From: a virus
Virus record (IMG/VR): IMGVR_UViG_3300031951_000076
Location: 1-64,000 of that record
DNA length: 64,000 bases
Reading direction: 5' to 3' (one strand)
The position numbers were made by a program, and so were the translations under genes. Shown here one piece after another: positions 6,366 through 30,600 of the stretch. The notes under the pieces were generated by a model. It was not told the DNA's origin, made no database searches, and saw only the letters and a program-made list of their open reading frames with translations. Every line of letters starts with the position of its first letter. Position 1 is the first letter of the stretch.

Positions 6366-6749
6366 ATGGATTACAGATGTAAATGTCCTTTTTGTAAAAA
6401 ACCAGATTGGATAAGTGTAGAAGATTATATTATTGAACTTTCTAAATTTTTAGGATATCCTAAATGCTGCACTAAACAATATTTAAAAGATAGATTAGAA
6501 AAAAAAGAATATTTTAATTGTTTTAGAACAAAAGCTGCTTTACGAATAAACAAGCTTTGTTCTTTTGATGCAGGATTTGTTCCTTGTAATTATCATGCTA
6601 GTAAAATTCTTTTTGAAAAGAAAAACTATAAAAGAATTTTTCGAAATAGGATATGCAGCACAGCTTTTCCATATGCTAGTACAGAAGAATTAAAAAGATA
6701 TCTAAAAAAAATTAAAAAGAACTATGCAAATAATAAAGCAAAAAACTAA
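6366..6749 (+). CDS. Cys-rich basic hypothetical protein (possible Zn-binding)
   Basis: CKCPFC and KCC motifs; abuts the kinase stop codon. Confidence 0.6.
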   Translation: MDYRCKCPFCKKPDWISVEDYIIELSKFLGYPKCCTKQYLKDRLEKKEYFNCFRTKAALRINKLCSFDAGFVPCNYHASKILFEKKNYKRIFRNRICSTAFPYASTEELKRYLKKIKKNYANNKAKN

Positions 6750-7575
6750 AACTCTTACAACAAGAGATAATGGGAGAAGTTCAGATGCAATTTCTCCCAA
6801 TTTTATCTATGGTTGTTTAGGAGGATGTATGAAATCTTATTGTTATGTAGGTAGATATAATAATGATAAAGTGTATATTAATGAAAACACAAATCATATT
6901 CTTCATTCCATGAAGAACTGGATGGAAAAACAACCATGGCCCAAGGTTCCTAATCAAGTAGATGATAAATATTATACTATAGATATAGGTTGTAGTACAG
7001 ATGTGGCTCTTATGAGTAAACATTATGACTGGCAAAAAGTATTTGATTTTTTTAATTTCTTTCCTAAAGTTAAAAGCACTTTTGCCACTAAGTATCCATC
7101 AATGTTTGATCCTACTAAATATAACCTAGACCCTTGGAAACATAGAATTAGAGTGAGTTTAATGCCTCAGAAGTATAGTAATGTACTAGAACCTAACACT
7201 GATCTTATATCTGATCGCATACAATCTATACCAAGACTGGAGAAATATATGGAAGTGCATATAAATTTCAGTCCTATTATCTTCCATGATGGGTGGTTAT
7301 ATGAATATGACGAATTGTTTAGAGAAATAGCATATTCAGGTATTGATGTAAAGTGTGAGTGTATTTTTCTTACGTATAACGATATACAACGTGAAAGAAA
7401 TGAACCTATTGTAAATCATTTATGTTGGAAGCCAGAAATACAAGAAAAGAAAGATTCACAATATGCGCCAGATAATATTAGATATAAATGGAATCTTAAA
7501 AGAGATATGATTGCAGAGTTTACAGGTTTATATTCTAGATACTTTGATCCAGCAAACATTAGATATATATTTTAA
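6724..7575 (+). CDS. spore photoproduct lyase-like radical SAM protein
   Basis: GCLGGCMKSYCY cluster motif; DIGCSTD (SplB EASCTSD-like), FATKY, RIRVSL, LEPNT, INFSPII. Confidence 0.8.
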   Translation: MQIIKQKTKTLTTRDNGRSSDAISPNFIYGCLGGCMKSYCYVGRYNNDKVYINENTNHILHSMKNWMEKQPWPKVPNQVDDKYYTIDIGCSTDVALMSKHYDWQKVFDFFNFFPKVKSTFATKYPSMFDPTKYNLDPWKHRIRVSLMPQKYSNVLEPNTDLISDRIQSIPRLEKYMEVHINFSPIIFHDGWLYEYDELFREIAYSGIDVKCECIFLTYNDIQRERNEPIVNHLCWKPEIQEKKDSQYAPDNIRYKWNLKRDMIAEFTGLYSRYFDPANIRYIF

Positions 7576-7577
7576 TT

Positions 7578-7919
7578 ATGAAACAAAAACCATTAACAAG
7601 AGATTTTCTATTAAGCAGAGGATTCTGTTGTAATAATGGTTGTAGAAATTGTCCTTATATGATAGCAAGTAAAACAGATACAGAGATTACAGAAGGTGAA
7701 GAAACATTCTGTATGTTTAAATTAGGAATGGAAGGTTCCTATATGACATCTTTAATAAATACAATATTTAAAGGTGATATGAATCATAGATTTAAATTAG
7801 CTAAAGGTTATCCTGAATTAGTAGAAGTATGTAACAAATACAATAATGAGTCAGGATACTGGCAGGAGTTAGTAGAAAGATGGAACAAAAAATATCCAAC
7901 GCATAAATTATATGCATAA
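7578..7919 (+). CDS. DUF5522-like Cys-rich domain fused to a hypothetical domain
   Basis: N-terminal LLSRGFCCNNGCRNCPY. Confidence 0.7.
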   Translation: MKQKPLTRDFLLSRGFCCNNGCRNCPYMIASKTDTEITEGEETFCMFKLGMEGSYMTSLINTIFKGDMNHRFKLAKGYPELVEVCNKYNNESGYWQELVERWNKKYPTHKLYA

Positions 7920-8082: not shown

Positions 8083-8111
8083 AAAAAAGAGGAGATTTTC
8101 TCCTCTTTTTT
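8083..8111. terminator. bidirectional intrinsic terminator between convergent gene blocks
   Basis: AAAAAAGAGGAGA-ttt-TCTCCTCTTTTTT perfect inverted repeat with A/T tails on both sides. Confidence 0.9.
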
Positions 8112-11100
8112 AATATCCAGTTGCTTTTTTATAATACTCTATTCTATTTAGATTACTCAATATTGGTAATACTTTTGTTACTCTTAATAAAGTTCTTTCA
8201 CCATCATATTCTATTTGACCTTTATCATCTCGTGTCTCTAACATATAATTATACACAGCTTGTACAGCTTTCCCATAGTTTACTGCTGTTCTTATTATTG
8301 GAAAAACATTTGCTTGTAGTTCTGCTGCAGAACTTGGGCTCATGTAATATGTTAAATCTCTTCTTAAATCATGAAGCTGTCTTAATATAAGTAGATTGTA
8401 TAACTTTTTGCTTTTATCGTCATCTGGTACAGCTGCTTTTAATAAAAGATAAGCTGTCCATATTGTAATTATTATTTGAAATTCTTTAGCTGCTTTACGT
8501 ATATTAGCTATTTCCAACTGATCTTCTAAATCAAGCTTATCAGAGCCCATTAATGCTTTAGCCATTAATGGAACCATTTTAAATTTTTTATCTAATAATA
8601 ATCTACCAAAAGTTCTGTAATAACCTTCTTCATCTCTTTGTAAAAGAGCATCTCTATGTCTTGGATCAAACCTCACACCAACTGTTTCTGGAAGCCATGA
8701 TTTAAAAAGCATTAAAACTCTTCCAACAGCATTACCCTTAGCTTTAATATGCACATCCTTACCTGTAGCCCCATGTAGTTTATTTGCAAGCTGTCTATAT
8801 CTTAACAAACTATCTAAATAATACTCTTCAAATGATTTATTACCATTTTTAGAAGCATCCCATTCACCATATTTTTGTACATCATATTCTCTATCTTCTG
8901 TAATTGCATCTATATAGGATACTTCTTTACCATCTTTTGTTTTTATTTTTTCAAATTTCATAGCTGACAAAAGTGTTTCAGCTTTAAAATGATAATCACC
9001 AGATGCTAACCAGGTATAAGCTTTTGGTATCATTTCTCTAAACTTATCAACTGTTGTTTTTTTATTCACCATAGCTTTCAGATACATCCCATCCTCACCT
9101 TCTGCTAAACCTGCATCACTTAATAAACCAAAAATTAATTTTGTCATTTTAGTTTGATAAGTACCCATAGAAAAATACTTACCCGAAGATTCTATAATAG
9201 TTTGATTAGCCCAAATAAGCTCTTTCATAGTATAGTCTCTTCTAGATGCAGCATGTATACGATTGTTAATCTTACCAACAAGTAAGTTTCTTATAGCTGA
9301 AAAAGGAGAAAAACCTAATGCTATTAAACGTGTATTAGCAACAGCACTATCTAAGGTTTTTGTTACAGAAAAGTTTCTTCCACCTAAACTATAATATTCT
9401 CTTTCTTTTTCTTCAACTTTCTGTTCTAGCTCTTCTCTTTCTTTTTCTGAAAGTTTATCATCATCTAGTTTTTTATTTAATTCTTTAATTTCATCTACAA
9501 GAATTTTAGCTTTTTTTGCAGTTTCATTTTTCCAACCACCAAAAGTTGCTAATTCTTTCCAATCATAAAAAAGCTTTTCAGATTTATATATCTCATCTTC
9601 TCCTTGAATACCATAAAAACTTTTCATAACTGTATAGTCAACTAATGACTTAATACTTGTTGCATCTTTATCTCTTTTTTCTAACTTTCCTAATTTTTTA
9701 TTTTTGACATATGTTCCTTCTGTACCTTGTACAATATCAACCATTGTCTCAATTTCAGCTTTAACAGTATTTTTATGTTTATATGCTAAAGCCATATCAC
9801 TAAACATTTTAGCAAGAAGCACCATATCTCGTGATCTTTCATTTATAGGAACACTTTCATTTATAAATCTTGCTTCAAAACCTCTACGTTCTTTTTTAGT
9901 ATAAGCACCTAATTCTGGTTTTCTTTCAAAATTTGCAACTGTAAATGCTTTTGTAAACCAATCACCTAACCCTGCTACTGTTTCTTTCATATTTGTAAAA
10001 GCATATTCTTTTGCTAACCTATCAGCAAGTACAGGAACAAAATTAGGACCTAAATCTTCAATTTCTTCTTGTGGTAGCCAATGTAAACTATCGTTAATAA
10101 ACTTTACCCACCAGTTATAAAAATTATGAAGCTTTGGGTTATTCATTATTCTGCTGAAATTTTCATCATAGTATTCAGTGGGCACACCTTTAATCATTTT
10201 AGCAGCAATCAAATATGAATATTTAGCACCACCATATGCTGTAACTTTTTCATTTTCAGTAAACTTTTGTTCCATATATTTCAATGGATTATTAAGGTCA
10301 TCAAATTCTTTTAATTTCATATCAACATACTCTTCAAAAGTCATTGATTGTGGAACAACACTTGGATTCTTTACAGCTTCGTTTTCAATATCATATCTAA
10401 ATTCTTCCATAGCTTCCTCAAATTTTTCAAATAATTTTTGAGATTCAGCTATAATTTGATCAATTTCTAATTTAGTAAAACCTAAATTTTTAAGTTTAGC
10501 TACTTCATCATTTCTTTGTGCATCAGTATATTCACCTGGCTTTAAAAAATATAAAGAATTAAAAGCAACTGTATTAGCTTCATTCCAAGCATTAAATCTT
10601 TGCCAAGCTTTTTTAATAAGAGCTTTGTCACCGTTTGCTTTTTCAATGTCTTTACGAAGCATTGTATTATTAGACCTTCTAGCATCTATAAACTTTTTAC
10701 TATATCTAGTTGCAAGGTTTAATGTATCATTACCATCTTTGTCCTTTTCCACTTTAAAAAAGATATTAAAGCCATTTTTCTTTATTTCTTCAATATCTTT
10801 TATTTTGTCGTATTCTAAATCTATTTCAACAAAATTCTTATTGTGTTCTATATTTATTTTGGTATTTACTTTCTTAATTGCATAAGCAATCTCATTAGGT
10901 AAAGCAATTCCAGATGTACCAAGTTCACGAAACCATTCTGTTAATAAGTGAGTGTCTTTCATTTTAGTAATCTCATTCTCACTTAATCCTGTTGCAGCTT
11001 TTACAAGTTCAATAGCAATTCTTCTAGATTGATCACTTAAATCATGAAATTTAGCGTCTACTTCTTGAACTTTTTTTCTTATTCTTTCACTCTTAATATC

Positions 11101-11592
11101 TGTAGAACTTTCAATACCTAAAATTGAATATAGACTTGACCATGTTTCAACAATACTATTTGCAAATTGTAAGTCATTAAATGTAATTTGATCACTTTTG
11201 TACATTGCTTCAACAAGATCAGCATCAATCATTGCGGTATCTAATATAAAATCTAATTGTTTATCTACATCGGCTTCATTAAGATCTGAGATGGTCTTAG
11301 AAATATCTTTCATTATTTTTCTATACTCAGTCTTCTTTTGATTTTTTTGTTCTTTAGTTAGTTTTGGATCATTTCTAACAGCATCCATTGAAGCTCTTGC
11401 ATCTCTATATCGCTCTTTTAACATATTATTAGTTTCCATTAAAAGATCAGATACTTTTTTCTTTTTGGTAGTAGCAATAGATTTAAAAATATTATTTATC
11501 CCACCAAACTCTGTAAAACTATTTTCTGAAAGAACTTTAATAAGCTCTTCTTTAGTATACATTCTACCATTATATTCATACTGACAAGCCAT
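8110..11592 (-). CDS. large ejected virion protein (third gene of the crAss-like RNAP/ejection trio, 1160 aa)
   Basis: Directly downstream of the RNAP gene; largely helical; C-terminal LHG..GRVLMLFKSW..EGYYRT region and one hydrophobic segment. Confidence 0.75.
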   Translation of the reverse strand: MACQYEYNGRMYTKEELIKVLSENSFTEFGGINNIFKSIATTKKKKVSDLLMETNNMLKERYRDARASMDAVRNDPKLTKEQKNQKKTEYRKIMKDISKTISDLNEADVDKQLDFILDTAMIDADLVEAMYKSDQITFNDLQFANSIVETWSSLYSILGIESSTDIKSERIRKKVQEVDAKFHDLSDQSRRIAIELVKAATGLSENEITKMKDTHLLTEWFRELGTSGIALPNEIAYAIKKVNTKINIEHNKNFVEIDLEYDKIKDIEEIKKNGFNIFFKVEKDKDGNDTLNLATRYSKKFIDARRSNNTMLRKDIEKANGDKALIKKAWQRFNAWNEANTVAFNSLYFLKPGEYTDAQRNDEVAKLKNLGFTKLEIDQIIAESQKLFEKFEEAMEEFRYDIENEAVKNPSVVPQSMTFEEYVDMKLKEFDDLNNPLKYMEQKFTENEKVTAYGGAKYSYLIAAKMIKGVPTEYYDENFSRIMNNPKLHNFYNWWVKFINDSLHWLPQEEIEDLGPNFVPVLADRLAKEYAFTNMKETVAGLGDWFTKAFTVANFERKPELGAYTKKERRGFEARFINESVPINERSRDMVLLAKMFSDMALAYKHKNTVKAEIETMVDIVQGTEGTYVKNKKLGKLEKRDKDATSIKSLVDYTVMKSFYGIQGEDEIYKSEKLFYDWKELATFGGWKNETAKKAKILVDEIKELNKKLDDDKLSEKEREELEQKVEEKEREYYSLGGRNFSVTKTLDSAVANTRLIALGFSPFSAIRNLLVGKINNRIHAASRRDYTMKELIWANQTIIESSGKYFSMGTYQTKMTKLIFGLLSDAGLAEGEDGMYLKAMVNKKTTVDKFREMIPKAYTWLASGDYHFKAETLLSAMKFEKIKTKDGKEVSYIDAITEDREYDVQKYGEWDASKNGNKSFEEYYLDSLLRYRQLANKLHGATGKDVHIKAKGNAVGRVLMLFKSWLPETVGVRFDPRHRDALLQRDEEGYYRTFGRLLLDKKFKMVPLMAKALMGSDKLDLEDQLEIANIRKAAKEFQIIITIWTAYLLLKAAVPDDDKSKKLYNLLILRQLHDLRRDLTYYMSPSSAAELQANVFPIIRTAVNYGKAVQAVYNYMLETRDDKGQIEYDGERTLLRVTKVLPILSNLNRIEYYKKATGY

Positions 11593-11595
11593 AAT

Positions 11596-14500
11596 TTAGC
11601 ATTTAATTTTAATTGATAAAGCTTTTACAATGTCTGAAAGATTATCTGAAATATTTTTTTCTCTAATCTCTTTTGTAACAATTGATTTTTGTATTGAATT
11701 TTGATCTGTTTTATTACGAGATTGAATAAGTCCTACAATTTTTGTTACACCTTCTTTAAGAACCGAGTCTTCTTTAATATTAATGTTAAGAAGTTTAAGA
11801 AGATCAGCAAGCATGTCCATGATTCTATCAAGAACACTTTTCTTACCATCATATGTAATGTTATTCATAAACTCTTGAAACCCTGAGTCTGTCATCAACA
11901 TACTCACAAAATCATGAATATTAGTTAATCCATAATACAATGATTTGTCTTTTGCTGACAGCATTCCATCTTCTCTATTCACTTGATCCATAGCTCTTTG
12001 TAAAGCAGGACCGTGAACTGGATCTGATAAAAGTTTTTGTTGTACAGCTTTAAAAAGATCATTAAGATCTTCAACCCACTTTCTTTGTTCACTGCTTAAG
12101 GTTTCTGGTCTAGCCATCAACAAATCAGCTGTTAAATGATGCATAAGCTCATGAACAATAACATCATGTAAACTTTTCACTGCACCGTCTAAATCAAATG
12201 AATTATTTTCTTGTAAAATTAATTCAGGATTGATTGATATAGTTTTTGTAAAGCTATTGTATTCTCCAGGATTTTTCAAACTTCTGTTAATAACAATTTT
12301 AAAAGGTGTTACAATCCCTGTTTTACCAATCATCATTAACAAACTCTTATTAAAACTATTTGTTTGCTTATAGAGCCTGTTTAAAAAGTCTTTACTATTA
12401 GTTTCTGTATCCTTACCTTGGAATAAAGCAGTTATTGCGTTATCCATAGCATCATTCATTAATGAATTTAAATTCAATTCAGTAGGATCAACTATGTCAC
12501 GAACAGATGTAGTTTCACCAACAACAGGTGCTACAGATGTAGAAGCAGGTTTTACTGCATTATCAAGTTTAGTTTTAGATTTATTGTCGTCTCTAATTGC
12601 TCCTTGAAACACTTCTTGGTTATGAATTATTCTAGAACCGCGAGGTTTTATGACAATTAATGTACCACTAGTTCTTGTCAAAGAAACATACATAGAACTA
12701 AATATATCATCTTGATTAATTTGAGCATTTTGTCGAGCTTGTTTTACATTATAGTCACCTACAATAACATTTTTAATACTATTACCTTGTGCAGTGTGAG
12801 ATGAACCTACATACGAAGGTGTAAATGGCATTTTTTTACTTGTAAGTCCTCTTAATTCTGCAGATATATTTTTAAACTCACGATAATGCATGCTAAAAGT
12901 TGCCAAAACATTTCCAGTTTTTGCATCTTTTATTTTTATATCTTCTTGTCTAGAAGTTTTAGAATTGTATTTACCCATTTCTACACTCAAACCAAGAGGT
13001 TTTCTATAACCACGTATTTTATTCTGTCTATTGTATAATAAAATATTTTCTGTAGTAACATCAAAGTCAGGTAAATGTCTTCTTAAATCACTAGATACTA
13101 CATCCTTAATTGATTCAACATTACTAACAATATCTATTATTTTATAACGAGACCTAGGTTTTATTATACCTCCAGATACATTAAAAACTTCTCTATCTCG
13201 ATTAAAAGGAACTTTTCTTTCCTTTAGTAATGCCTCTAGTTTTTCATCTGAAGTTTTATATTGAAACTCAGATCCTCTCATTTCTAATGCATCAGTAAAC
13301 TCAACATAGTCTCCATTTGAAAAGTTTCTATGATCTACTTGTTCAATCTGTTTACCAATCTTTAAGAAATATAATTTTCTAATTTTATCAGCTAAATTTA
13401 TTGTATTTGGATTTTCAACTCTATTATAGTGCACCCAAAACATTCCATAAGGATTATTATTTTGAGATAGAAAATCTGTATAATCGTCTATAACACCAAC
13501 TTCATTGTCAACAACAAGCATATTTTCTGTTGACTTATTTGTTAACGCATCATACTTATCAAATGAAAGTTGTCTAGGTTGTTTACCTTCTTTTGTTCTA
13601 TTAATATTATCTATTATCTCATTACCTACAGAGTCATAAATCTGATGTAATAATTTATCACCAGATCTCATTACCTGAGTAAGTTCTTTTGTTTTTTCTT
13701 TATTTAAAAGAAGGGTTGAAGATATAATACCTTTGTTAACAAATGCATTTTGTTGTTCACCAATTGGTCCCAGCTGACGATAGTCACCCATAAAAATAAA
13801 TATAGGCATTTTAAAACTATGTCCATTTTTTAAATCATATGCTGTTCTCTCAAGCATATCTTTAATGTCTTGTGTAGTTACCATTGATGATTCATCTACA
13901 ATAATAACATCAGGTGAGCTAAATGCTGGTTTATATTTTAAACCAAGAGCATAGTCTTCCGTAGAAGCCATTACTAAGTTTCCATTTTGATCAATCTTGT
14001 TTCTTCTTACAGCTGATGGTATTGTATTTACAGTGCCATCATTTGCTTTTTCAGAGTCAAGTCCAAGGGATTCTTGTAATACAGTTGCAGCTGTATGACT
14101 TGGTGTTAAATACATTATACTAACACCTCTATATTTATTACCTGAATCTAAGCTATCCATAATAGCTCTAATAACTGTTGTTTTACCAACACCACCTCTA
14201 CCAGCTAAACCAATCATATTATCCCACATAACTTTAGGAATAACACCACTAAACTTTATAGATAAAGGATCTAAGAAAGAAACTGTATTTTCTAATTCTT
14301 CAACACGAACTCTTTTTGAGTCTTTTAATATTTTTTCTACGTTTGCTTTAATAAAGTTGTAAGCTTCTTGCTGACCATCATTCATTAAGTATTTAGTGTT
14401 CTCATCCTCAAATATCACCATATTGTTAGGATTAGAACCCTCTGGTACATTTATACGTTTACCAGTCTCAGGATCTAAAGATTTTTTAATTATTTCTTTA

Positions 14501-17500
14501 GAACTTTCTACTATTTCTGTATCATTCTCTAATCTACCAGCAAGAGCTTTGTTTACTCTATTATGTATGTCATCACTTGTAATTTGTGTGCCATATGTTG
14601 ATTCTTGTAAAGAATAAATTTCTCCTGCAATATCAACATAGTATTTAGGTTTTGTTGGCATATCTGTCAATGTAACAACATTTTCAGGATATGTCTCAAC
14701 TTGGTAAGCTAATGTAACTTTATTATAAAGCGACATGTCTTCAACTTCTTTTGTTTTTACACCATCTTTATCTGTGTAAAAAACTTTAAAACCTTCTTCA
14801 ATACTTCCTTCAACAATAAAGTTTGAATTTTTATATCCTATCAAAGTAGAAGGTTGTTCATCAATTTCTTCTTCAGATGTAACTATAGATTCACGACTTT
14901 TGTAAGGCTCGTTTGTTCTTACTTCAAAAGCTTTTGGTAATATAATATTATCAGGAATACCAAACTTATCATTCATTCTTCTAAACAAATCTTTCATTTG
15001 TTCTACACTTCTTCCTGCAAGTTTTGTTCCTATTTCTGTTACATAGTATTTATTATCAGGATTATTTAACGCCTCAATTCTTAAAGCATTTAAATCTTCA
15101 ATAGTCATTTTATCCATAGCTTTTTTATTCTCTTCTGTAAGCTTAGGATAAACAGTAAGTTTATCATCCTGGTACATTTTAGTTCTAATAGCAAATGATC
15201 TACCTTGTAAACCACTTGCTTGACCTGTAATAGCACCAAAATCGTCAACAGCTGCTTTAGCAGCACCTAATCCATGAACACCTTTATCATTAGATCCAAA
15301 GACAAAGTATCCATTTTCAGGTAGATTTTCTTTAGTAATTTTATCTAGTGTAGTTTCTCTTTTTAATTCTTCTTTTACAACTTCTTTAGTTTTACCAAGT
15401 GTATTATTATATACATCTCTAATAGCTTGTTTAGCTGCTTCTTCAATTTCAGGTCCTTTGTATTGCTGTCTTTGCTCCCATTGACCTGTTTCTTTATTTT
15501 TAACATTATAAGCTTCAATATCTCTACTACCAACACCAGCAAAATTTCTAGTTAATTTAGGTGTTTCAGTTTGAACAAACTGTTTACCATCATATTTAAA
15601 CCATGCACGGTTGTTTAAATCCCATACATAAACAGGTTTATTTAATTTTATACCTAATTGTACAGCAACATTTGTCCCACCTTTAACTTTATCAAACTTA
15701 TATGATTTAATAGACTTAGTAGGATCAGTTAAATTATCTGGTTTTGATTTATCTATAGATGAATCTAACTCAGCAATAGCATACACAGCATCTGCATTAG
15801 CTACTTGATAATAGTTTCTCACTTTAAGATTACCTTCTGTTGTATCTGGATAATCTTCACCAAGAAGTCTTTTAACCTCAGCTCGTGCTTTATCCATTTC
15901 TTGTTTTGATAAAACAGTTGCTTGAACATTACTATCTCTTAATTTTTTAGAAAGTCCTTTATTACTTTCTTCTCTATAGTGTTTATGATTTTGTACGCCA
16001 AATTCTCTACCTATTACGTCCCAGAATGTATCAGCACCATAAGCGCCTCCAGAATGATTTACATAAACTGCAGGGTTACTTAAATCAAATGCTTCTACTT
16101 CTAAACCTTGTACCAATTCTCTAAGATCACTTTCTTCTTTTGCAAAATCAGCTGCACTTACATCAACTTGATTATTCTTAATAGATGATTCAAGTCTAAG
16201 ATTGTTAAAATCATATTCTTTAACACTTTTATATCCAAGAATATTAATTCTTTCATACTCAGCAATACCATTCTCAGGTATTGCCTCACTTACTCTTTTA
16301 TATAAGTAATTAACTGACCAGTCATTTTGAGGAAAGAAATCACTTGTATAACTATCATTAATTAGTATATAAGCAGGATATTTAAAGTCTACATTTCTTT
16401 CAGCAGCTATTTTTCTTTCTTTGTCATTTAACTTTTCAATTTTCAATGATTTAACAATAGACTGTGTTTTTTCATTAACTTGAAAATCCCCCACTTTAAT
16501 TTTAAAATTTTTGACATCTTTTAATGTCGCTGCATTATTTATTAAAGGTTTAAGAGATTGTTTAAACGCATTGTCTTTATCATTATTAGTTGAATAATTA
16601 AATTTAACACTATACTCTTCAGGATTATTCTGAACAATTTGATCTTTTAAAATATTAACACCAAATTGATTACCTAGAGTAAAGTTAAATTCATTATCAA
16701 AATCAGCAATTGAAGTTTGAAAATCTATATCTCTCATGTAATAATCAACAGGTATAAATCTTTGAATGTTACCAGCATCTCCTGTAGCATATGGATATAA
16801 TGCAAGTTCTCTTGCAATCTCTCTAACTATTTCATTTTCTGAAGTGGCTAGTTCATAAAAACCAGAAAGTATTTCTTTCTCGTTCATGTCTGTACCAAAT
16901 GGTGCTTTAAAAGATATTAAATAAGCATCACCTTTATATTGAGGTTCAACTTCAATATATTTTAAAAAGCCATTTGTAATAAATTCAGGATTTTGCTGAA
17001 GCTCTAATATACTTTTACCTAAAGATGTATCACCATTTAAAAGCCTACTTCTGTCTGTTTTTAAGTCGCCAAATAACTCTAAGTTAGGCATTGTGTACAT
17101 ATATGCTTTTATAGCATTAAAGGCGGTTTCATAAGCACGAATGTATCTTTCTCTTCCCAAGTCTTCTTTGTCAAGTCCCATGTCGTTTAATAAACTAACA
17201 ACTATATTTTCAAGTGTTCTACCTGTACTAACAGGAAACAACTCTTGATATATAGACTGAGCTTTTATAAGAGAATATAAAATTGAATGCCCAATTTCAC
17301 CTTTTGGAACAATTGAAATAAGACCACTATCAGAATCTTTATTTACTGCGCCTGCAACATTTGTAATATCTATAAATACAGATGATTTAGATAGTTTATT
17401 TAACTGATTTATCTTCTGTAGTGTTGTAAATACATCTGCACCTATACCTTTAGTATATGTATAAACAGATCCAAGTATAGTCATAAACTCTTTACCAATC

Positions 17501-20500
17501 TCATCTAATCTTGAGAATAATTCCAATGAGTCATACTGAGTTACATAATAATCAAGCAATAAATCTTTAACTGATTTATATCCTAAATCTTTTGAAAGTG
17601 TTAAAAGTTTTTCTTCTTGTACATCTCTAATGTTTTCACCTTTTGCTAAAGCATCTTCTTGAATTAATGCTCCAAAAACTGCTTGATTATTTGATGATAA
17701 AAGTTTACCAACAATCCACATATTTTCTAATTTCTCAACACTAAGTGGATCTTGTTTTTTCCTTTTTGAATCAGAAAGATATGCTACTAAAGATTCTTCA
17801 TCTTTAAATTTATCTAGACCACCTATTTTTCCAGTTATTTCACTTGCTATTTCTTGTACACTATTAACAAAAGCATTAGATTCAAATCCTTCAAATGAAT
17901 CTTGTTTCTTATTAATACGTCTAAATAAATCGTATATAACCTCTTGTGATGTTAAGTCCATTGAGAACTCAATTGGCAAAGCCACTTTATCTTCTGTTGT
18001 TAGCATATTTAAAATACCAACAGAACTCATTGCTTTTTTATCCCAGTTAAACTCTCTAAGATTAAGATTTTTAGCATTATCTACAGATTCACCAAATGGA
18101 ATATTTATGTTTTCACCTACAGTGTAAGTATTCCCAGCTTGTGATTTAGATTTACCATTTTGACCAATAAAAACAAACTCTTCAACTTTACCATTTACTT
18201 TTATATAAATGGGAAGTTTCACTGCTTCAAATCCTTTACCATCTTCTTTTTCAGTCATATAACCAAGCGTCAAAGGTTTATCTTGAAAGTCAGCTTGTGC
18301 AGAAATATAGTTTGCAAAAACAGATACACCATCTTTACCTGATCTATTATCTTCATGTCTTTTAATACTTGTGTTAAAATCAAGAGGTAAAACAACAGAA
18401 GGATCAGTAGATATATTATATTTCTCAAGAAGTTTACTTCTTTTATCAATTTTTACCTTTACTTCTGGAGAATCGATAGATTTTGTAATTTTTTCAAAAG
18501 CATCAGGATTTGTTAAAACAGTCCAATGAATATCTTTATACAACTCTTTTAACTGATCTTCATCTAAACTATCAATATCTTCAACTTTAGTTAGTTTATA
18601 AGGAATAGATTTATAACCAATAATATTTCCTTTTGAATCTTTTTGTGCAATTGATTTTGACTTGTACGCATAAAGTTTGTCAATATCAAAGTCAGAACCC
18701 ATCTGACCAGTAATACCATCAGGAACTATTATAGTATCTTCCATATATTCTGGGAGAAAACCTACCACTTCAACAGGTAATGTTGAAGGAAGACTTTGGT
18801 TAGGAATACGTGATGCAACAAGTCTTAATAATTTAGGATCAAGTTTAGACGTATCAAGTATTTTAACCTTATTTTCCTCTTTGATAAACTGTTTTAGGTC
18901 TATAAGTTTACCATTTTCATCTTTAATGTATTGTGATACAATTATTTGTGCTGGTTTAACTTCCCCATCTTTTTTTGAAATATAAGCAAGAGATGCTTTT
19001 CCATCTTTAAAAGTAGACGCATATGTATCAGTCCATATAATATCTGATTTAATAGATTCACTTAATGTACCAAACGTAAACTTAGAACCAACACCACTAA
19101 CTTGAATAAAGCTTGATCCATTCATTTTTAACATTACATTCTTGTTAATCATTGAATTTATCAAACCTTGAAGTTTCTTTGCTTTAGGATTTAATTCAAT
19201 TGGAAAAGCAATTTTCTTTGTTAAAGAATCTAACTGAATTGCTCTTAAATCGTTTTCACCATAACTTCCACTTGTATCTTCTAGTATTGTTTTTCTTAAT
19301 AGCTTGTAGAGACCTATATGATTTGCTTTTAAATTACCTAATTCTTGATCAAGCTCTTCTGATTTTAGTTTAAATAATCTAGTACGAACTCTTTCTTTTA
19401 AATTTTTTAATTCAAGTCCAGTTACATCACCCAGACCTTCCATTTTAAATACAGAATCAAGCAAACCATCAAAAAGAGTACGATTCATTTGTGTAATGAA
19501 AGGTATTTCATCTTTTTGATGAGGAATCTCTTGTTGAGTTCTTAAACCATCTCTACTTAAAATTTGCGTTGCTTTTTCTGTATCTTCTTTTGAAGGTTCT
19601 ACAAAGTTTCCATTTTTATCAAATAAAACTACAGACACTGTAGGTCTTCCAAGTTTTTTACCTGAAGCAAAATTTACACTATTAATATCATTTTGCTCCA
19701 TCCATATTCTTAGCTTATCTCTTTCACTACCTGCTTCATGTTGTGGTAACAAAGGATATCTAGATGACTTTACATAGTCAATTCTATTTAAACCAGTGTC
19801 TCCTTCGTTTTGATCACTAACCTGTACTGGTTTTAAAGGAGTAAATATAACTTTAACTTCAAGATCACTTAGTGTATAATAACCACCTTTACCTGCTTTT
19901 CTGATTTTATTTGTAATTGACTCCCATACATCTAAATCTATTTTACCTTCACTTGCTAAAAAGTCAATATGTTCTTGAACTGTTGTAAATTCTTGAGCAT
20001 CTGTAGTATCATTTTTAACTTTATTTACAACTATTGTTAGATCATCAGCTGTTACAGCTTTATAATCTTTACTAAAATATCTTTCACCTTTAGATGTAAC
20101 CCAAGACCAGTTACCTTGTGATCCAGGTGCAATTAAAGCTGCGGCACGCTTTGAAAATTCATCCCATGTGGTAAGAGCAATTTTAACTTTTTCGCCACCT
20201 GTATACTCATTAAAAGCTTTTTTAGTTAAACCTTTTGGCATTTTAAAAGCTACCATTGGATCAAACCTTAAAAACTGAAGTGTTTTAACTTGAGCATTCA
20301 TATAGTTAAGCTTCATATCCATAACCATTGCCCTTGCTAAATCACGTCCTTTTAAGTCAGTACTTTTAAATCTAAATAAATAATCGTTTGCTTTACCAGA
20401 TTTAAATGATGGAAAAGAAAATACTCCTTTATCAACTTTAAAAATACCATCAGCAACATAGTTGTTTATATCATCTTCAACAGACTGTTTAAACTCATTT

Positions 20501-23265: not shown

Positions 23266-23271
23266 TCTTAT

Positions 23272-26200
23272 TTATTTTTTAGATTTTGGCTTTGTATTAC
23301 ATTTATCTTTTTCTTTCTCTACTTGTTCATCAGTCATTTGATTTGCAATTGCTATACGATCTAGTTGTGCAAAAATATCATCTGGATTTACAGCTGCTTG
23401 TTCACTAGAAACTTCTGGTTTTTCATAATAAAGATCTTCCATTGCAAATGGGTTATCATATGGACCCACTGTTTTTGGATTAATTACTCCTTGTTCTACA
23501 TCATTTTTTTTATATTCTAAACTTCTTCCGTATTTATCTTTTTTAGAAATAACTTCATATTTATTTCCTTTTTCATCATACAATACATCTCCCACCTTTG
23601 CAAATCTTAATTGTGTTTTTGCAGATTTCTTTGTTTGTTTAACGGTAGGTTTTACTTCTGCAGCTGCTAATTCTGCATCAACACTAGCTTTAATTTCACT
23701 AGTAAGTATTGTAGAATCATTAAGTATTTCTTGTTCTTCTTTAGAAAAGCTAGTGATTATTTTACCAGCTTTTAGTTCTTTGTAAAGTTCTCTAGCTAGT
23801 TCTGCATCATATTGAGCATTAATTCTTCTTTTTTGCTTTCCATAATCATCATCATACATACCTCCTTCATCGTCATATTTTTTAAGTGCTGCTTTTCTTC
23901 TTTCTTCTATATTAGCTTTTACATTAGAAACCGAAGCTGTAGCAGGTTTAGCTCCTTCTAAAGCAGCTAGTTCTTTTTCTAGTTTTGCTTCAATAGCTCT
24001 ATGACGTTTACCATCTTCTGTTTCTGGTGCAGCCCAACTTCCTGTAAAAGAATTTTGCCATTCTGTTATAAGATTTCTTACTGACTCAGGTACATATTTA
24101 TTGTATAATTTAACTTTTTGCTCCTGTGATGCTTGTTCACTTTCACCAGGTCTATAAGTAAATGTACCATCTCCCCAATCTTTCTTTTCAGAAAAAAGCT
24201 CAACTCTACCTTTACTATTTCTATCAATAACTAGTAAAAACTCTTTACCACTGTCACCAATTACCTCTACGCTTACTTGTGTACCCTGTTCTCTAATCCC
24301 TGCAGCTACAATAGCTTTCTTATCAGAAACTACAGGAGCTATTGGTTGTGTTAAAGCAGCTAGTTCAGCATCGTATATTTTATCAATTTCTTTTTCTAAA
24401 AGTTCTTTAGTTTCAAAATCAGTTAACTTGTATTGTTTAAAAGTATTAGTATTTTCTTTTTTATGAACTCTTATCACAGTTCCCCATCGCTGACCTTTAG
24501 TTCCTAATACAGAAACAACAATATCTTCTTTTGCATCAGTTCTAAAATCTTCAATTTCTTTTCTTCTTTTTTCTATATCAGAAACAGGAGCTGTAGGAGC
24601 TGGTGTTACAACAGGTGGTTTTTCAAATGTATCACCTACAACAACTTCTTCTTCTTTTGGTTTTACAACAATAGCGTCTGTATTGGATGACATTTTAATC
24701 ACAGGGTTAGCAAAATACACCCAATCACCATCTTTGTTTTTAGAAGGAATACCTTCTTCTACATATGTCATTGCATTCTGCATGATGTATTCATTATACG
24801 TCATGGGTGTAATTTTCACTTCATTGTTTTGTATTGTAACAAAAGGTACTTTTTTAGTGTTATTGATACCAACAAGATTAGGATTTCTTGGATCAGTAAA
24901 TTTAACTGTTGTTAAAAGATTTTGCATCAAAGAAATAACATTACCAGGAAGTTCACTAGATAAAACAATTGGTTTACCATCGTTATTGAACCATTCACCA
25001 TCTGCAGTTTTTACTTGCAAATATAAATGTCCTTGTGCTGTAATATTAAGTCTTGCTAATCCATTAGCTACATCACTACCGTTACCAATTTCAGAAAGCT
25101 GTTCCTTTTTAAGACGTGTAATAAATTGATCAACATATCTTTGTAACACTCCAATATCAGGTTTACCTTCTGACATTTCCATACCTAAAGCTTTGTAAAT
25201 TCCTTCAACAAGCTTAGGATTCATTGTTTCACCTACAAATGCTTTCCAAGCTTCAATTATAAGCTTAGCTTTATTCTCACTCACCTTTGGAAGTTTAACA
25301 TATGTAGGAAAAAATGTACCACGAGGTGTTGGTAATAACAAAACAGATACACCACTTTGGTTATCTATTTCTTCTGTAAATGATTTTGTATTTTCAACTT
25401 TATCAATAACTACACCTGCATCTACTTGTAGCTCACCATTTTTTACAATAGCAAACATTCCATGGCGATTGTCAGTTCCACCATCTGCTATTTTTGGATT
25501 AACTCTATCTTTAATTACACCAGGATCTGTTGTATTTCTTAAGATACCTATTGACTTTCCTTCAACTATTCCATTCATTTCAAAACTTGGATCATTGTTA
25601 AAATTATCCAGTATAAATTTACGAAATTTTTGATTCTTTGCAACTTCTTCTTTTACCACGGTCGGCAAGTCCATATCTAACTGATCTTCAGGAACAACAA
25701 TATTTACATACTTGTTAAATATTTTATGGTTAATCCACTGTGGTTCATGGAATGTTCCAATAAGTTTTTCTTTACCTTCTATTGTAGCATATACACCAAT
25801 TGGAGCATAGTCATACATTTCAGGATTAACTTTTCCATCTGGACCAAAAATGTTTCCAGCATCATAAACATCCCCAGTTATTCTATTTGTTACAGTTGGG
25901 AAATCTTTTGTCATCACTCTATAAGTCAGTGACGAACCTTCAGGAAAGTTTCCTGTCGCAATATCAAAAACATAGTTTGTATTTACACCAGTTCTAACTT
26001 GCGTAACTACATCACCAGTAACTCTAAATTCAGCTATATCAGTTGTATTAGCTAATGAGTTACTTGGAGCAGTTTGTCTTCTTCCTTCTTGATAAGTTAC
26101 ATTAGCTGTATTATTATCAGACCTTGATGATTGTAATCCTGTTGTATCAAAACGATTATTCTGAACAAAGTCTCTAACCGCAGATGGATCATCTTCAATA

Positions 26201-29200
26201 AACTCAGAATATCTAATTTTATATGTACCGTTTTCAAGTTTTCCTAAAAAGTCATCAATCAAAGCTTTATCAAAACTAGTTTCACCTGCATTATTAGTAA
26301 CAATGTAGTTTACTGCTTTACCAGGAATAACAGATGCTATTTTGTATATATTACCTTGATCATCTGTAAACTCATTATTTACTTGTATTTGATCAAAATA
26401 ATTAATTTCAACATCAGGTTTTGGTTCTGCTTTCTTTAAACTACTTGCTTCTACAAATCTTTTAACACCATCAGATGCAACTAGTGGATTACCTTCTAAA
26501 TCTTTTAAATGATAAACCACTCTACCATCTTGTGTTTTAGTTATTTCAGCTACGGTATATTCTTTATCTTCAAAAACAACATTGTCATCTATTTTATATT
26601 CTTCTGTTTTTGGTTTTGGACCACCTTTTAATCTTTCATATCGCTGTCTTTCAAATTTACCGCTTGTTTTTTCCCATATTTCATAAGGCGGTGTTTCTCT
26701 ATCTGCAGCATCATTTGACGCTTTAACCTTATTATATTGTTGTTGTAAATATTCTTCAACAGTATTAGGTATTTCTTGTCCTTCAACGTCTTTTGCACGT
26801 TTAAGTTTACCTGTTTTTAAATTATCTAAAAATTCTTCTTCAGTAAATCCAATATTATCATCAGTTCCATCTAACGCATTTAATAAAATTAAATCACCTA
26901 ATGGAGCTATATCATATTTTTTACCATTAAAAATATAATTTTCTGTAAAATCAATTCCTGAAGTTTCTGTTTGTTGCTGCTGTTGACCTTGTTGACCTTG
27001 CTGTTGTTGACTTTCTAACTCTTTTCTTCTTTTTTCTTCTTCTTCTTTTTTCTTTTCTTGTTCAATTTCTTCTAAAAACTTTGCTCTCATTACAACAAGA
27101 TCATCAGTTATTAATTTTTCATTAATAGCCATATCAATAATCTCGCGCTTAGAGTAATTTTCAATTTCTTCTTCTGTTAATCCATTTTCTTTTAAAAGTC
27201 TAGCAGCAGATGTATAAATGTTATCACTTAGATATTCATCCACTTTATAAAATATATCATCTAAAACAGATGGTTTAAGCTCAAGATTAAATACTCTTTT
27301 AAAGAAATCACTAAGTGCATCTACAAATTCAACCCAAAGTGATTTTTTTCCTGTTAATCCAGGTACTGATGTTAGCTCTTTCTGAAACTCTGGATTAGAA
27401 TAAGCCTCAGCTAAAAATTCTTGAATGTTTGTAAAACCATAATAACTAGTATCAATACCTCTATCTTCTAAGGTTTTCTTAGCGTAGTTGTAAAGTTTTT
27501 CTATATCTCTTGTAAACTTGCTGTTATAAGCAAGCTCATCACTAGTTAAAAGGTGAATAATCTCATGAAGCATAACGCCCTCAAATGACATTTTACCTTC
27601 ATGTAAATCAGGATCAATCGTTATTGTATTACTACCTAATGTGTAAAAAGCTGGAGCTATAGTTTGATTTCTATCAAATTTTACTTTTGCGTCATCTTTT
27701 ATACTATCATACAAGCGAGCTAAAGCCATTCTTAGATAAGGATCTATATATGGATTTGCTGCCATTTTTTGTATCATCGGTTTAAGAGCAACAGTCTCGC
27801 CATCTTGTACATCATAGTATTCCATTATATCTTCTGCAATCCTATCATCATCTTTCATTCTATACAAGAAAGTGGCGTTTGTTCCTTTTTTTACCCAAGA
27901 TGTACCTTCTTCATATTTTTTACCTTTTCTTTCTTCTCTTCTTTTTTTTCTTTCTTCATCTGTAAACCTTTGACTCTTACCTCTTTCTGCACGATCAGCT
28001 ATTTCATTAAAAGGTTTTACAATTACATTATCAATATATTCTTTAAAGTTAGCAGCACCGTTTTTAGTATCAGCATACTTTGCCCATTCTAATCCAAGTT
28101 GTCTAATTTGATTTTGTAACTGACTTGATCTTTGTTGTCTACTATATAATTTGTTCCTTAAAATAACATTTTGTACTTGATTTCTATTTGCTTTTTCATA
28201 CTGATACAAACCATCTGGACCTTTTTTAATTGTCTTTAATGCTTCTGGATTATCTTTCTTTAAGGTGTCTAATTCTTTTTGAAGTTCGTTTAATACTGTT
28301 TTAGCTAAAGCTTTTTCAATAGGTTTTTTATCACTAATCTCCATTCCTTCAATATAATCCTTTTGAGAATCAATTCTTAATTGTAAATCATTTAATTGAT
28401 CTGCAAGATCATCTGATAAACCTATATCTTCTTTAGCTATTTGATTAAGCATTTCATTTTTAAACTCATTATTATCAGCTGTTGTTTCATTTACAAGATT
28501 TCTATATATTGCAAGTCTAGTTGCAAGCTCAGTCATTTTGTTTTTTCTAGCCTCTTCTTCAGGAAGCATTCTTCCACGCCAGTCTTTTTTAAATATAATA
28601 TCATCGTTCAAAATTTTATTTTGAGCGATCATTTGTTTAGTTAAATTTTTATATTTTTCAATTTGTTGTGGTGTAGTTTCATCAGGAGTAAAACCTAATT
28701 TAGCAAGCTCACCTGCATCAGTTCTTCCAACAGCATCAAGTTTACCAAGTAGTGTATTTTCTAAACCTAATTGAATATGTGCATTTACAAATTGAGCAAA
28801 GGCACTATCTCTTAATAAATCTCTATGAAATTTATTTTCTACAGTGTTTGCAGCTTCAATAGCGCTATTTACATTATTAAAATTGTTAGCAACATTAAAA
28901 AGCTTACTTTGATTAATTGTTGGTTTACCTTTTTCGTCCAAAATAATTTGCTCTTCTGATACCTCATTACCATCTTTGTCTTTAGTTGTTACCATTTTTG
29001 TTTCAAAAATGTTACCAAACTTTAACCAGTTTTGTTGGGCTTCATTATAAAACTTTACAGCTGCTTTAGTAAACTCATCATTTCTTTTTGCTTGTTTAAG
29101 TTCACTATAAACACTCATCCCTCCACCTAAAATACCACCTAAACCAATACTTATAGATGCTTCAGGATCTTTACCTGTAACAGCATTTAATGTTTGATTC

Positions 29201-30600
29201 CAGTATTGATTAGCTAAAGATTTAACATCTTTAAGTTCAGCCATCTTACCTTCAACGCCAAATTTTTCATTAACTCTTTGAATAGCTAACTGAGCATTTT
29301 CTTCTACAAAACCTTCCATCAAAGTACCTTTACCTAAAGCAGTAAGAAAAATTCCTGGTTTACTATTTAAAAGTTTACCTATACCTGTATTAGATAATTC
29401 ATATGCTAATTCATCACCTAACCTAGTACCTCCCATTAAACCTTTTGAAATAGGTTTAGTAGCAGCTTTACCCCACATGCTATTCAGCAACTTTAATTCC
29501 CATAAATTTGTCGCAGATAGTATAGCCGCATTTGCCATGAATGTTTCTTTCATGTGACTAGCAGCTATTAACTTTTTTTCTTCTTTTGTATAAGGTAATC
29601 CAGTGTTTGGGTTAATTCTTAAAAAACCTCTTTCATCTGTAGTTAAACCTTTTTCAATATTTTTACCTACTTCAGTGGTTTCAAACATAGATTCACCACC
29701 TACAGAAAGAGCCCATTGTGAAACTCTATCTAAACGATTAGCCCAAATAGATTGTGCCTTTGTTAAATAATTTTGTACAGACGCTGCTCCTTCAATTGCA
29801 TTATTAGCTGCACCTGCCCCTAATTTATAACCTGATAAACCTCTTGCTATTTTTTCTCCAACACCTAATCTAGAAAATGCCATACCAGGAGCAAAAGCTG
29901 ACACCATAAAAGCAACACCATCTGTAAAATCATTTGTCCAAAAATTTAAATCATGTGTTGCTCTCCACCAAAAGCCTGCACCTTGTGCTTCAGCTTTTTC
30001 ATACACAGGAAGCCAATCATTTTTTAGTTGTTCATCTAAATGACCAAAAACTTGAGCCATTGCATTTTGAGATGCATTTTGGATGTAATTATCTCCCCAG
30101 TTAGTTGGGTCTATCAGCCCTAAAAGAAAACCTGTATTTTGACCTATTTTAAATCCAGTAGACAAAGGAAGTCTAAGTAAACCTTTACCTAAATTAGCCC
30201 ATACACTTTCATTTTGAGCCATCCAATCTTCATTATTTCTATCATATTGAAAGTTAGGACCTATTCTTTTACCTGGCTCAAAACCACTATCATCATATCT
30301 ACGTACTTCTGATAATGGTGTTTTAAAAGGTTCTGTACTAATACCAGATCTTGCAAATTGATCTGTGCGTTCTACGTATTGTCTTGCAGCAACAAAAGCA
30401 GCACTCATATTAATAGTGGTACTATCTGTAGTGAGATCAGGAATTTTACCAAACTTACTCTCACTAGTTAATGCTTCAAGATTTAGTATTCTTTTAGAAG
30501 AATCATCAAATTTGTCTAAATTTGATAAATCGTCAAGTGTTAAATCAAGATTTAAATCTTTAACCGATGTATTTGATACATAGTCGTTAAATGCTGACAT
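23272..30600 (-). CDS. large ejected virion protein (2442 aa) with Gly-rich membrane-like segments, zincin domain and C-terminal repeats
   Basis: GVAFMVSAFAPG and IGLGGILGGG hydrophobic segments, EGFVEE..Q, HEIIH..YGFTNIQEFLAEA, DAELAAL repeats. Confidence 0.8.
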   Translation of the reverse strand: MSAFNDYVSNTSVKDLNLDLTLDDLSNLDKFDDSSKRILNLEALTSESKFGKIPDLTTDSTTINMSAAFVAARQYVERTDQFARSGISTEPFKTPLSEVRRYDDSGFEPGKRIGPNFQYDRNNEDWMAQNESVWANLGKGLLRLPLSTGFKIGQNTGFLLGLIDPTNWGDNYIQNASQNAMAQVFGHLDEQLKNDWLPVYEKAEAQGAGFWWRATHDLNFWTNDFTDGVAFMVSAFAPGMAFSRLGVGEKIARGLSGYKLGAGAANNAIEGAASVQNYLTKAQSIWANRLDRVSQWALSVGGESMFETTEVGKNIEKGLTTDERGFLRINPNTGLPYTKEEKKLIAASHMKETFMANAAILSATNLWELKLLNSMWGKAATKPISKGLMGGTRLGDELAYELSNTGIGKLLNSKPGIFLTALGKGTLMEGFVEENAQLAIQRVNEKFGVEGKMAELKDVKSLANQYWNQTLNAVTGKDPEASISIGLGGILGGGMSVYSELKQAKRNDEFTKAAVKFYNEAQQNWLKFGNIFETKMVTTKDKDGNEVSEEQIILDEKGKPTINQSKLFNVANNFNNVNSAIEAANTVENKFHRDLLRDSAFAQFVNAHIQLGLENTLLGKLDAVGRTDAGELAKLGFTPDETTPQQIEKYKNLTKQMIAQNKILNDDIIFKKDWRGRMLPEEEARKNKMTELATRLAIYRNLVNETTADNNEFKNEMLNQIAKEDIGLSDDLADQLNDLQLRIDSQKDYIEGMEISDKKPIEKALAKTVLNELQKELDTLKKDNPEALKTIKKGPDGLYQYEKANRNQVQNVILRNKLYSRQQRSSQLQNQIRQLGLEWAKYADTKNGAANFKEYIDNVIVKPFNEIADRAERGKSQRFTDEERKKRREERKGKKYEEGTSWVKKGTNATFLYRMKDDDRIAEDIMEYYDVQDGETVALKPMIQKMAANPYIDPYLRMALARLYDSIKDDAKVKFDRNQTIAPAFYTLGSNTITIDPDLHEGKMSFEGVMLHEIIHLLTSDELAYNSKFTRDIEKLYNYAKKTLEDRGIDTSYYGFTNIQEFLAEAYSNPEFQKELTSVPGLTGKKSLWVEFVDALSDFFKRVFNLELKPSVLDDIFYKVDEYLSDNIYTSAARLLKENGLTEEEIENYSKREIIDMAINEKLITDDLVVMRAKFLEEIEQEKKKEEEEKRRKELESQQQQGQQGQQQQQTETSGIDFTENYIFNGKKYDIAPLGDLILLNALDGTDDNIGFTEEEFLDNLKTGKLKRAKDVEGQEIPNTVEEYLQQQYNKVKASNDAADRETPPYEIWEKTSGKFERQRYERLKGGPKPKTEEYKIDDNVVFEDKEYTVAEITKTQDGRVVYHLKDLEGNPLVASDGVKRFVEASSLKKAEPKPDVEINYFDQIQVNNEFTDDQGNIYKIASVIPGKAVNYIVTNNAGETSFDKALIDDFLGKLENGTYKIRYSEFIEDDPSAVRDFVQNNRFDTTGLQSSRSDNNTANVTYQEGRRQTAPSNSLANTTDIAEFRVTGDVVTQVRTGVNTNYVFDIATGNFPEGSSLTYRVMTKDFPTVTNRITGDVYDAGNIFGPDGKVNPEMYDYAPIGVYATIEGKEKLIGTFHEPQWINHKIFNKYVNIVVPEDQLDMDLPTVVKEEVAKNQKFRKFILDNFNNDPSFEMNGIVEGKSIGILRNTTDPGVIKDRVNPKIADGGTDNRHGMFAIVKNGELQVDAGVVIDKVENTKSFTEEIDNQSGVSVLLLPTPRGTFFPTYVKLPKVSENKAKLIIEAWKAFVGETMNPKLVEGIYKALGMEMSEGKPDIGVLQRYVDQFITRLKKEQLSEIGNGSDVANGLARLNITAQGHLYLQVKTADGEWFNNDGKPIVLSSELPGNVISLMQNLLTTVKFTDPRNPNLVGINNTKKVPFVTIQNNEVKITPMTYNEYIMQNAMTYVEEGIPSKNKDGDWVYFANPVIKMSSNTDAIVVKPKEEEVVVGDTFEKPPVVTPAPTAPVSDIEKRRKEIEDFRTDAKEDIVVSVLGTKGQRWGTVIRVHKKENTNTFKQYKLTDFETKELLEKEIDKIYDAELAALTQPIAPVVSDKKAIVAAGIREQGTQVSVEVIGDSGKEFLLVIDRNSKGRVELFSEKKDWGDGTFTYRPGESEQASQEQKVKLYNKYVPESVRNLITEWQNSFTGSWAAPETEDGKRHRAIEAKLEKELAALEGAKPATASVSNVKANIEERRKAALKKYDDEGGMYDDDYGKQKRRINAQYDAELARELYKELKAGKIITSFSKEEQEILNDSTILTSEIKASVDAELAAAEVKPTVKQTKKSAKTQLRFAKVGDVLYDEKGNKYEVISKKDKYGRSLEYKKNDVEQGVINPKTVGPYDNPFAMEDLYYEKPEVSSEQAAVNPDDIFAQLDRIAIANQMTDEQVEKEKDKCNTKPKSKK
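23660..24595 (-). repeat. 3-4 imperfect cassette repeats (S)DIE(K/E)RR...I(N/D)AxYDAELAAL with unrelated cores
   Basis: IDKIYDAELAALT, IEAKLEKELAALEG, INAQYDAELA, SVDAELAAAE; DNA repeat TAAAGCAGCTAGTTC near 23959 and 24352. Confidence 0.75.

Follow-up and report, generated by a model that had tools for sequence, protein, structure and literature searches.

Paired terminal cysteines at the gene junctions of a putative crassvirus RNA polymerase cargo block

Three giant proteins and their four cysteines

The sequence analysed here, hereafter the window, is a 64,000-nucleotide (nt) stretch (positions 1 to 64,000) of IMG/VR virus record IMGVR_UViG_3300031951_000076, a record of 88.7 kb that is ~74% complete. 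On its minus strand lie three consecutive giant open reading frames (ORFs) whose products, proteins A, B and C, total 7,491 amino acids (aa) and contain only four cysteines (Cys; 0.05%), all at the two inner junctions of the trio, A–B and B–C. The proteins, their junction Cys and the part that each Cys is proposed to play are as follows.

23272-30600, minus strand: protein A, 2442 aa, first member of the proposed chain; its sole Cys is C2434 and its N-terminus has none.
23299-23301, minus strand: codon of Cys2434 of A, eight residues from the end of A; putative C-terminal donor at junction A–B.
11596-23265, minus strand: protein B, 3889 aa, middle member of the proposed chain; its only Cys are C3 and C3889.
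23257-23259, minus strand: codon of Cys3 of B; putative N-terminal acceptor at junction A–B.
11599-11601, minus strand: codon of Cys3889 of B, the last residue; putative C-terminal donor at junction B–C.
8110-11592, minus strand: protein C, 1160 aa, last member of the proposed chain; its sole Cys is C3 and its C-terminus has none.
11584-11586, minus strand: codon of Cys3 of C; putative N-terminal acceptor at junction B–C.

A sequence-only reading of the window had listed these ORFs, Cys counts and codon coordinates and had described the outer ends of the trio as Cys-free; translation reproduced the former exactly and confirmed the latter. Most other window ORFs have a Cys share of ~1-3.5%, and against a Cys frequency of 1.5% the depletion in the trio has a P of 5e-43 (binomial), against one of 0.9% a P of 4e-24. 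For four randomly placed Cys all to fall at most nine residues from the four inner termini, P is ~5e-10. Both the Cys depletion and the terminal placement in A, B and C are far beyond chance. All three proteins are encoded in one reading frame, with TAA plus two codons at A–B (23263-23274) and TAA plus one codon at B–C (11590-11601); this shared frame looks like chance, because relatives show other frames and overlaps.

Protein B carries a crAss-type, two-barrel virion RNA polymerase (RNAP) region at residues of about 950-1550, together with several other modules. The domains and motifs located in A and B are listed here.

18619-20199, minus strand: RNA polymerase core of B, residues 1023-1549 (phrog_16227, E = 1.4e-44).
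13576-14217, minus strand: SF1 helicase-like P-loop domain of B, residues 3017-3230 (Pfam AAA_30, 9e-15; also AAA_19 and PIF1).
12139-12153, minus strand: HExxH (zincin-like) motif of B, residues 3705-3709, ~180 residues ahead of the terminal Cys.
27553-27567, minus strand: HExxH of A, residues 1012-1016.

The RNAP core of B aligns to the crystal structure of phi14:2 g066 (PDB 6VR4, E = 4e-25) with the catalytic DFDID (residues 1525-1529, 18679-18693) in register, and tblastn matched it to phi14:2 g066, p-crAssphage gp44 and FpV4 gp32. In the zincin-like motif of B, H3705, E3706 and H3709 are invariant in orthologues. Other modules of B are a DprA-like stretch and a sub-threshold ART-PolyVal match. 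The sequence-only reading had also taken the string IGTKLAG for a Cys-less Macro motif. That string is present (B residues 2745-2751, window 15013-15033), but Pfam gives no Macro hit and the region matches only phrog_2072, a family of unknown function, so the assignment was dropped. These matches make B a predicted polyvalent protein with the virion RNAP core of the crAss type.

Through its C-terminal region, C is related to proteins of known crassviruses: the C-family hidden Markov model (HMM) matches phi14:2 g065 (959-1406) and PhicrAss001 gp49 (913-1258), and tblastn of C reached hypothetical proteins of the crassviruses cr55_1 and cr1_1 and, in cr111_1, a protein annotated as 'RNA-polymerase subunit'. 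An AlphaFold2 model of C of moderate quality (mean pLDDT, the predicted local distance difference test score, 67) places Cys3 in coil before a predicted beta-hairpin (residues 5-12). Protein A received no family assignment in Pfam and PHROG profile searches, and neither g067 nor gp47 is matched by the A-family HMM, so that any equivalence of A to these proteins is one of position and Cys pattern only. No solved structures related to A or C were found, and there were no near-identical DNA relatives among deposited phages. Given the RNAP core in B and the kinship of C to g065 and gp49, A, B and C probably constitute the crassvirus RNAP cargo block, which is packed in the virion and injected into the host. 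The cargo-block proteins of phi14:2 and PhicrAss001 have been found in virions by proteomics (PMC10172136; 10.1101/2020.03.07.982082) and probably leave by way of the tail in a partly unfolded state.

The neighbouring stretch at 5646-7919 (plus strand) is a divergent block encoding dNMP kinase-like, Cys-rich DUF483, spore-photoproduct-lyase-like (radical SAM type) and DUF5522 proteins.

Conservation of the terminal cysteines

Relatives of A, B and C on viral contigs were found by alignment-based scans; a single-protein scan gave none. All 31 full-length homologues of C, the most distant at 23% identity, have Cys3 within a conserved N-terminal motif and 0-2 Cys in the rest of the protein, and Cys3 is an invariant column in alignment A1. 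Both C3 and C3889 of B are invariant columns in alignment A3. Across 83 giant relatives of B (2,100-6,200 residues), which contain 0-7 Cys and mostly 0-4, most have one Cys at position 3-6 and another at the last position, -1 or -2; among the 19 closest orthologues the N-terminal Cys is found in 18 and a Cys no more than one residue from the C-terminus in all 19. Homologues of B share the N-terminal motif 'MxCPN..S.EW' and the C-terminal motif 'LNIKTxC'. Typical of the 64 homologues of A is one Cys, lying 0-16 residues from the C-terminus, and none at the N-terminus; C2434 of A is an invariant column in alignment A2. IMG/VR contigs of the same lineage carry the Cys pair at both junctions. Junction Cys are encoded by TGT as well as TGC.

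The same arrangement extends to reference crassviruses. In phi14:2, g067 ends in its sole Cys, g066 carries C3 and C2179, and the only Cys of g065 is C3. Pairs of this kind also occur in FpV4 (gp32/gp33), p-crAssphage (gp45/gp44), crAss002 (gp32/gp33, after correction of a start codon) and the genomes cr109_1, cr125_1, cr52_1, cr271_1, cr6_1 and cr111_1. The reference phages cover the Steigviridae, Intestiviridae and Suoliviridae and the unassigned genus Fipvunavirus (FpV4), and the rule holds in every one examined and in every Crassvirales family sampled. The correction concerns crAss002 gp33 (L031, NC_055828), whose annotated start departs from the rule; read from an internal Met 32 codons further on (16806-16910), the protein would begin 'MSCTPSN', with its Cys facing that of gp32 at -1, and the annotated start is probably over-extended by those 32 codons. 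By predicting the start of crAss002 gp33, the Cys rule offers a practical aid to annotation.

Some other large proteins near the cargo block have isolated Cys. The 750-aa protein encoded upstream of A (30638-32890) was considered as a further chain member and rejected: its single Cys (C732) lies 19 residues from the end and is unconserved, and its homologues, which start with 'MATYLPN.TD', have 0-2 Cys, none of them terminal. The upstream, cargo-like proteins p-crAssphage gp47 (L030, 5792-8365) and crAss002 gp30 (L031, 6111-7784) have one Cys apiece, at -1 and -7 from the C-terminus, respectively, and the protein that follows has no N-terminal Cys. An 'RCGG' ending is common to crAss002 gp30 and p-crAssphage gp48.

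Gene splits, fusions and the DNA-level junction

The terminal Cys follow the breaks between cargo genes and are absent where the genes are fused. With the C domain assigned as fused or unfused by HMM mapping, a Cys was found in the last five residues of 53/57 RNAP-core proteins without a fused C domain, compared with 0/11 of those with one (Fisher P = 9e-10, on counts inflated by shared ancestry), and among the four unfused exceptions two carry a Cys at -8 or -10. Fused forms without any Cys include P0062 (4,903 aa), P0067 (6,224 aa) and a single 7,100-aa ORF on L040 (569-21871), which was found as a relative of an RNAP-core protein and looks like a cargo polyprotein fused in large part or in full. 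P0062 retains the end-of-B motif as 'NLNIKS' and then reads on without Cys. The split point also shifts relative to the HExxH domain between lineages, and the Cys pair shifts along with it: HExxH lies before the B–C break in the window and after the g066–g065 break in phi14:2, and at each of these places the other lineage is continuous and Cys-free.

The proximity of HExxH domains to some of these Cys raises the question of a 'cysteine switch', in which the terminal Cys would cap the zinc of the adjacent HExxH domain and hold a protease latent in the particle. Such a motif lies 180-245 residues from one junction Cys in window B, PhicrAss001 gp47, p-crAssphage gp45, crAss002 gp32, FpV4 gp32 and phi14:2 g065. 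However, a switch would account for at most one Cys of one junction per phage, there is no HExxH near the window A–B or phi14:2 g067–g066 junction, and the fused forms keep the zincin-like region without any Cys. We regard this explanation as very unlikely.

The same picture came from a tabulation of Cys-poor ORFs of 600 aa or more, which meet at 48 distinct junctions: both Cys are found at 28 of these, neither at 17 and one only at 3. All 17 junctions without Cys belong to upstream virion proteins outside the chain, and of the three with a single Cys, one is explained by the crAss002 start error and one by a probably frameshifted contig.

Nor does the pairing depend on how the genes adjoin. 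Among relatives, the genes meet in various frames and at spacings of -1 to +30 nt or more. In PhicrAss001, gp47 is encoded on the opposite strand from gp50 and gp49 and does not adjoin the start of gp50, and still has its sole Cys, C2339, at -2, with C5 in gp50. The second pair expected in this phage is C2404 of gp50 with C5 of gp49. On L039, a Cys-rich ORF of 261 aa (16697-17482, 6 Cys), which may be a mobile endonuclease-like element, is inserted between a 700-aa chain member (only Cys C4 and -1) and the last member (C3 only). Because spacing, frame, strand and adjacency all vary while the pair stays, the Cys pair is not a DNA-level junction effect; stop-codon read-through and translational coupling were rejected for the differences in frame and spacing among relatives. 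Judged from these genomes, Cys pairing is a conserved protein-level rule.

These observations bear equally on the idea that the Cys are incidental, reflecting either relaxed selection against Cys at disordered termini or a role of TGT and TGC as nucleotides in coupling or read-through. The window itself would suit such a reading, as its ORFs share a frame and lie only TAA plus one or two codons apart. Against it stand the other frames and spacings of the relatives, the persistence of the pair across a strand inversion and an inserted gene, and ~100% conservation at fixed positions, compared with 17 neighbouring junctions of Cys-poor virion proteins that lack terminal Cys. It is the least credible of the explanations, and we give it almost no weight.

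The sequence-only reading had proposed counting and positioning Cys across relatives as a check of its own idea. This was done, and the pairs proved to be conserved, to track the gene splits, to vanish in fusions and to outlast the loss of adjacency. Their distribution indicates that the terminal Cys are selected, paired, protein-level features that replace the peptide bond where the cargo polyprotein is interrupted.

A proposed disulfide-linked chain and its precedents

The best explanation of these patterns, and in our view a rather likely one, is that intermolecular disulfides, joining consecutive proteins head to tail, turn the split cargo into the equivalent of a single polyprotein. Under this explanation, the bodies of A, B and C would be kept Cys-free, like other ejected phage proteins, and one Cys would be retained at every terminus that adjoins a neighbour in the chain. 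Within the particle, A-C2434 would bond to B-C3 and B-C3889 to C-C3, with a single disulfide per junction, and the linked proteins would act as one continuous chain, like the Cys-free polyprotein of related phages. Because the Cys lie within a few residues of the protein ends, the joints would be nearly linear and thin enough to travel with the extended chain. The chain would be packed in a fixed order and stoichiometry and then extruded via the tail, and its members would separate on reduction of the bonds in the cytoplasm, for which reduction of the host thioredoxin type has been considered. The main benefit may be ordered threading, fixed packing stoichiometry or both. Ordered threading through the tail and reductive release in the cytoplasm are steps that we infer.

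Disulfide chemistry is the most likely form of the linkage by analogy with cyanopodophage A4, in which cryo-electron microscopy resolved a disulfide between gp27 Cys1715 and gp26 Cys5 (PNAS 2025, PMC12002296). In the genome record of Anabaena phage A-4L, these are the sole Cys of proteins of 1717 aa (gp27, Cys at -2) and 1114 aa (gp26, Cys 5) encoded by consecutive genes. A disulfide is feasible in crassviruses, because PhicrAss001 virions already contain structural disulfides, in the tail and in the gp57 dimer (PMC10172136). No thioredoxin or Erv1-type sulfhydryl oxidase was found in the ~74% complete record of the window, and the Erv1 search, having found none in control genomes either, is uninformative. 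Small thioredoxins are encoded by p-crAssphage (L030, 31182-31460) and cr111_1 (L047, 31241-31510).

Paired termini could instead share another Cys chemistry, either a common metal ion or a covalent bridge such as a Lys-Cys link. The pairing rule requires only two thiols that act together, the termini are rich in Lys, Glu and Asp, and gut crassviruses meet little oxygen, all of which would accommodate such a linkage. A metal site would be a poor one, though, as each terminus offers a single Cys with neither another Cys nor a conserved His close to it; moreover, the identical signature in A4 is a plain disulfide, and disulfides already occur in crassvirus tails. We therefore consider other chemistry improbable.

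A more serious alternative accepts the disulfide and assigns it a different task, that of an assembly clasp that locks the folded cargo, or pre-ejectosome, in fixed stoichiometry, with no unfolded thread being pulled. The A4 disulfide stabilizes the contact between gp27 and folded gp26, a cleft of which takes up the C-terminal helix of gp27 (PMC12002296). Both sides of the crassvirus junctions carry conserved motifs (for example, 'LNIKTxC' with 'MACxYxYxG'), and the 'CPN..PEW' module recurs on different downstream proteins, which suggests specific docking. Fusion also fixes stoichiometry, so the fusion and split rule fits a clasp equally well. On the other side, a clasp does not need Cys placed 0-5 residues from the protein ends, as they are at most junctions, whereas a thin linear joint does. 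In PhicrAss001, the cargo must partly unfold to pass constrictions of <50 Å (PMC10172136), and a covalent link would travel as a thread anyway. We hold a pure clasp to be possible but on the whole unlikely.

Beside the shared ancestry behind the fusion counts, several observations weigh against a disulfide-linked, threaded chain or limit its reach. A quick maximum-likelihood tree of the RNAP core shows at least seven changes each of fusion state and of C-terminal Cys; only five well-supported independent pairs could be drawn from it, of which four go in the predicted direction and none in the opposite one, an underpowered comparison (sign test, P = 0.125). L044 shows junctions without the pair, though its ORF boundaries look frameshifted: at 6182-6204 and 14547-14593, the giant frames overlap the preceding stops, with the first ATG ~300-420 nt into the overlapping frame, as if by frameshifts or sequencing errors. 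Some joints lie short of the very terminus: the Cys can be as many as 16 residues from the end in the A family, and that of PhicrAss001 gp50 stands at -8. The anaerobic gut is home to many crassviruses, which assemble inside a reducing cytoplasm, conditions that do not account for where and when the Cys would be oxidized. The disulfide has been seen in the particle for A4 only, the crassvirus pairs being known from sequence alone, and the A4 bond clasps a folded pre-ejectosome and is by itself no sign of threading.

The sequence-only reading had proposed that disulfides string the three proteins into one ordered chain. That proposal gains from the conservation of the pairs, their tracking of gene splits and the A4 structure with the same signature, while its disulfide chemistry, pulling and release stay conjectural. 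In a wider form that we put forward more tentatively, crassviruses and, convergently, at least one cyanophage may deliver their injected proteins as a single redox-stitched polymer, in which a terminal disulfide repairs every break of the ancestral polyprotein, gene order sets the order of packing and of entry as well as stoichiometry, and the reducing cytoplasm frees the RNAP and its partners. For podophage-like viruses, whose tails are narrow, the passage of megadaltons of protein, an RNA polymerase among them, has yet to be explained. If the explanation is true, a covalent joint between consecutive cargo proteins would be a simple physical answer to the problem of ejection, would explain why cargo genes fuse and split freely in evolution, and would place a redox step in the way the most abundant human gut phages infect their hosts.

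The closest known counterparts of the window trio are g067-g066-g065 of phi14:2 and gp47, gp50 and gp49 of PhicrAss001, which resemble it in the RNAP core with DFDxD, the C-terminal region of the last protein, apparently the gene order after the tail genes, and the terminal Cys. Unlike these, window B is longer (3889 aa) and has extra helicase, DprA-like and zincin-like modules; because B carries these, the window B–C split falls after the HExxH domain and not before it. The PhicrAss001 atlas places gp47, gp49 and gp50 in the cargo zone of the capsid, does not mention their Cys, and leaves ejection order and mechanism open (PMC10172136); its LC-MS/MS of virions covered one reduced and one untreated sample. 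In a preprint on the phi14:2 RNAP, the trio is described as fused in some phages into one polyprotein that is probably cleaved later, again with no mention of Cys (10.1101/2020.03.07.982082). Full-text searches of the literature found no description of a terminal Cys rule for crassviruses. In the single giant crAss-like polyproteins, a fused C-type domain comes after the same RNAP core; these chains are held together by peptide bonds and have no Cys, whereas the window trio has two breaks, each marked by a Cys pair.

Two systems outside the crassviruses share parts of this arrangement. The ejected proteins of N4-like phages (N4 gp50, DEV gp71, gp72 and gp73) are Cys-free, which has been ascribed to passage through the oxidizing periplasm (PMC11445570). 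Like the window trio, the N4-like ejection operon combines a giant virion RNA polymerase with companions that have nearly no Cys; unlike the trio, Cys are reported absent altogether, there is no conserved terminal pair and the polymerase is a single polypeptide. The N4-like virion RNA polymerase probably belongs to a different RNAP family. Phage A4 comes closer in its Cys, having consecutive large virion-internal ejection proteins with a lone Cys at the C-terminal end of the upstream member and a lone Cys at the N-terminal end of the downstream one. It differs from the window in having one link instead of a multi-link chain and no RNA polymerase, and its bond has been described as a clasp in a folded pentameric pre-ejectosome, with no rule relating Cys to splits and fusions stated there. 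A and C have no detectable homology to A4 gp27 and gp26 (hhalign probability 0.2% in both comparisons), and the resemblance is, on these comparisons, one of mechanism and not of family. Cys suppression in N4-like ejected proteins and the A4 disulfide were thus already known.

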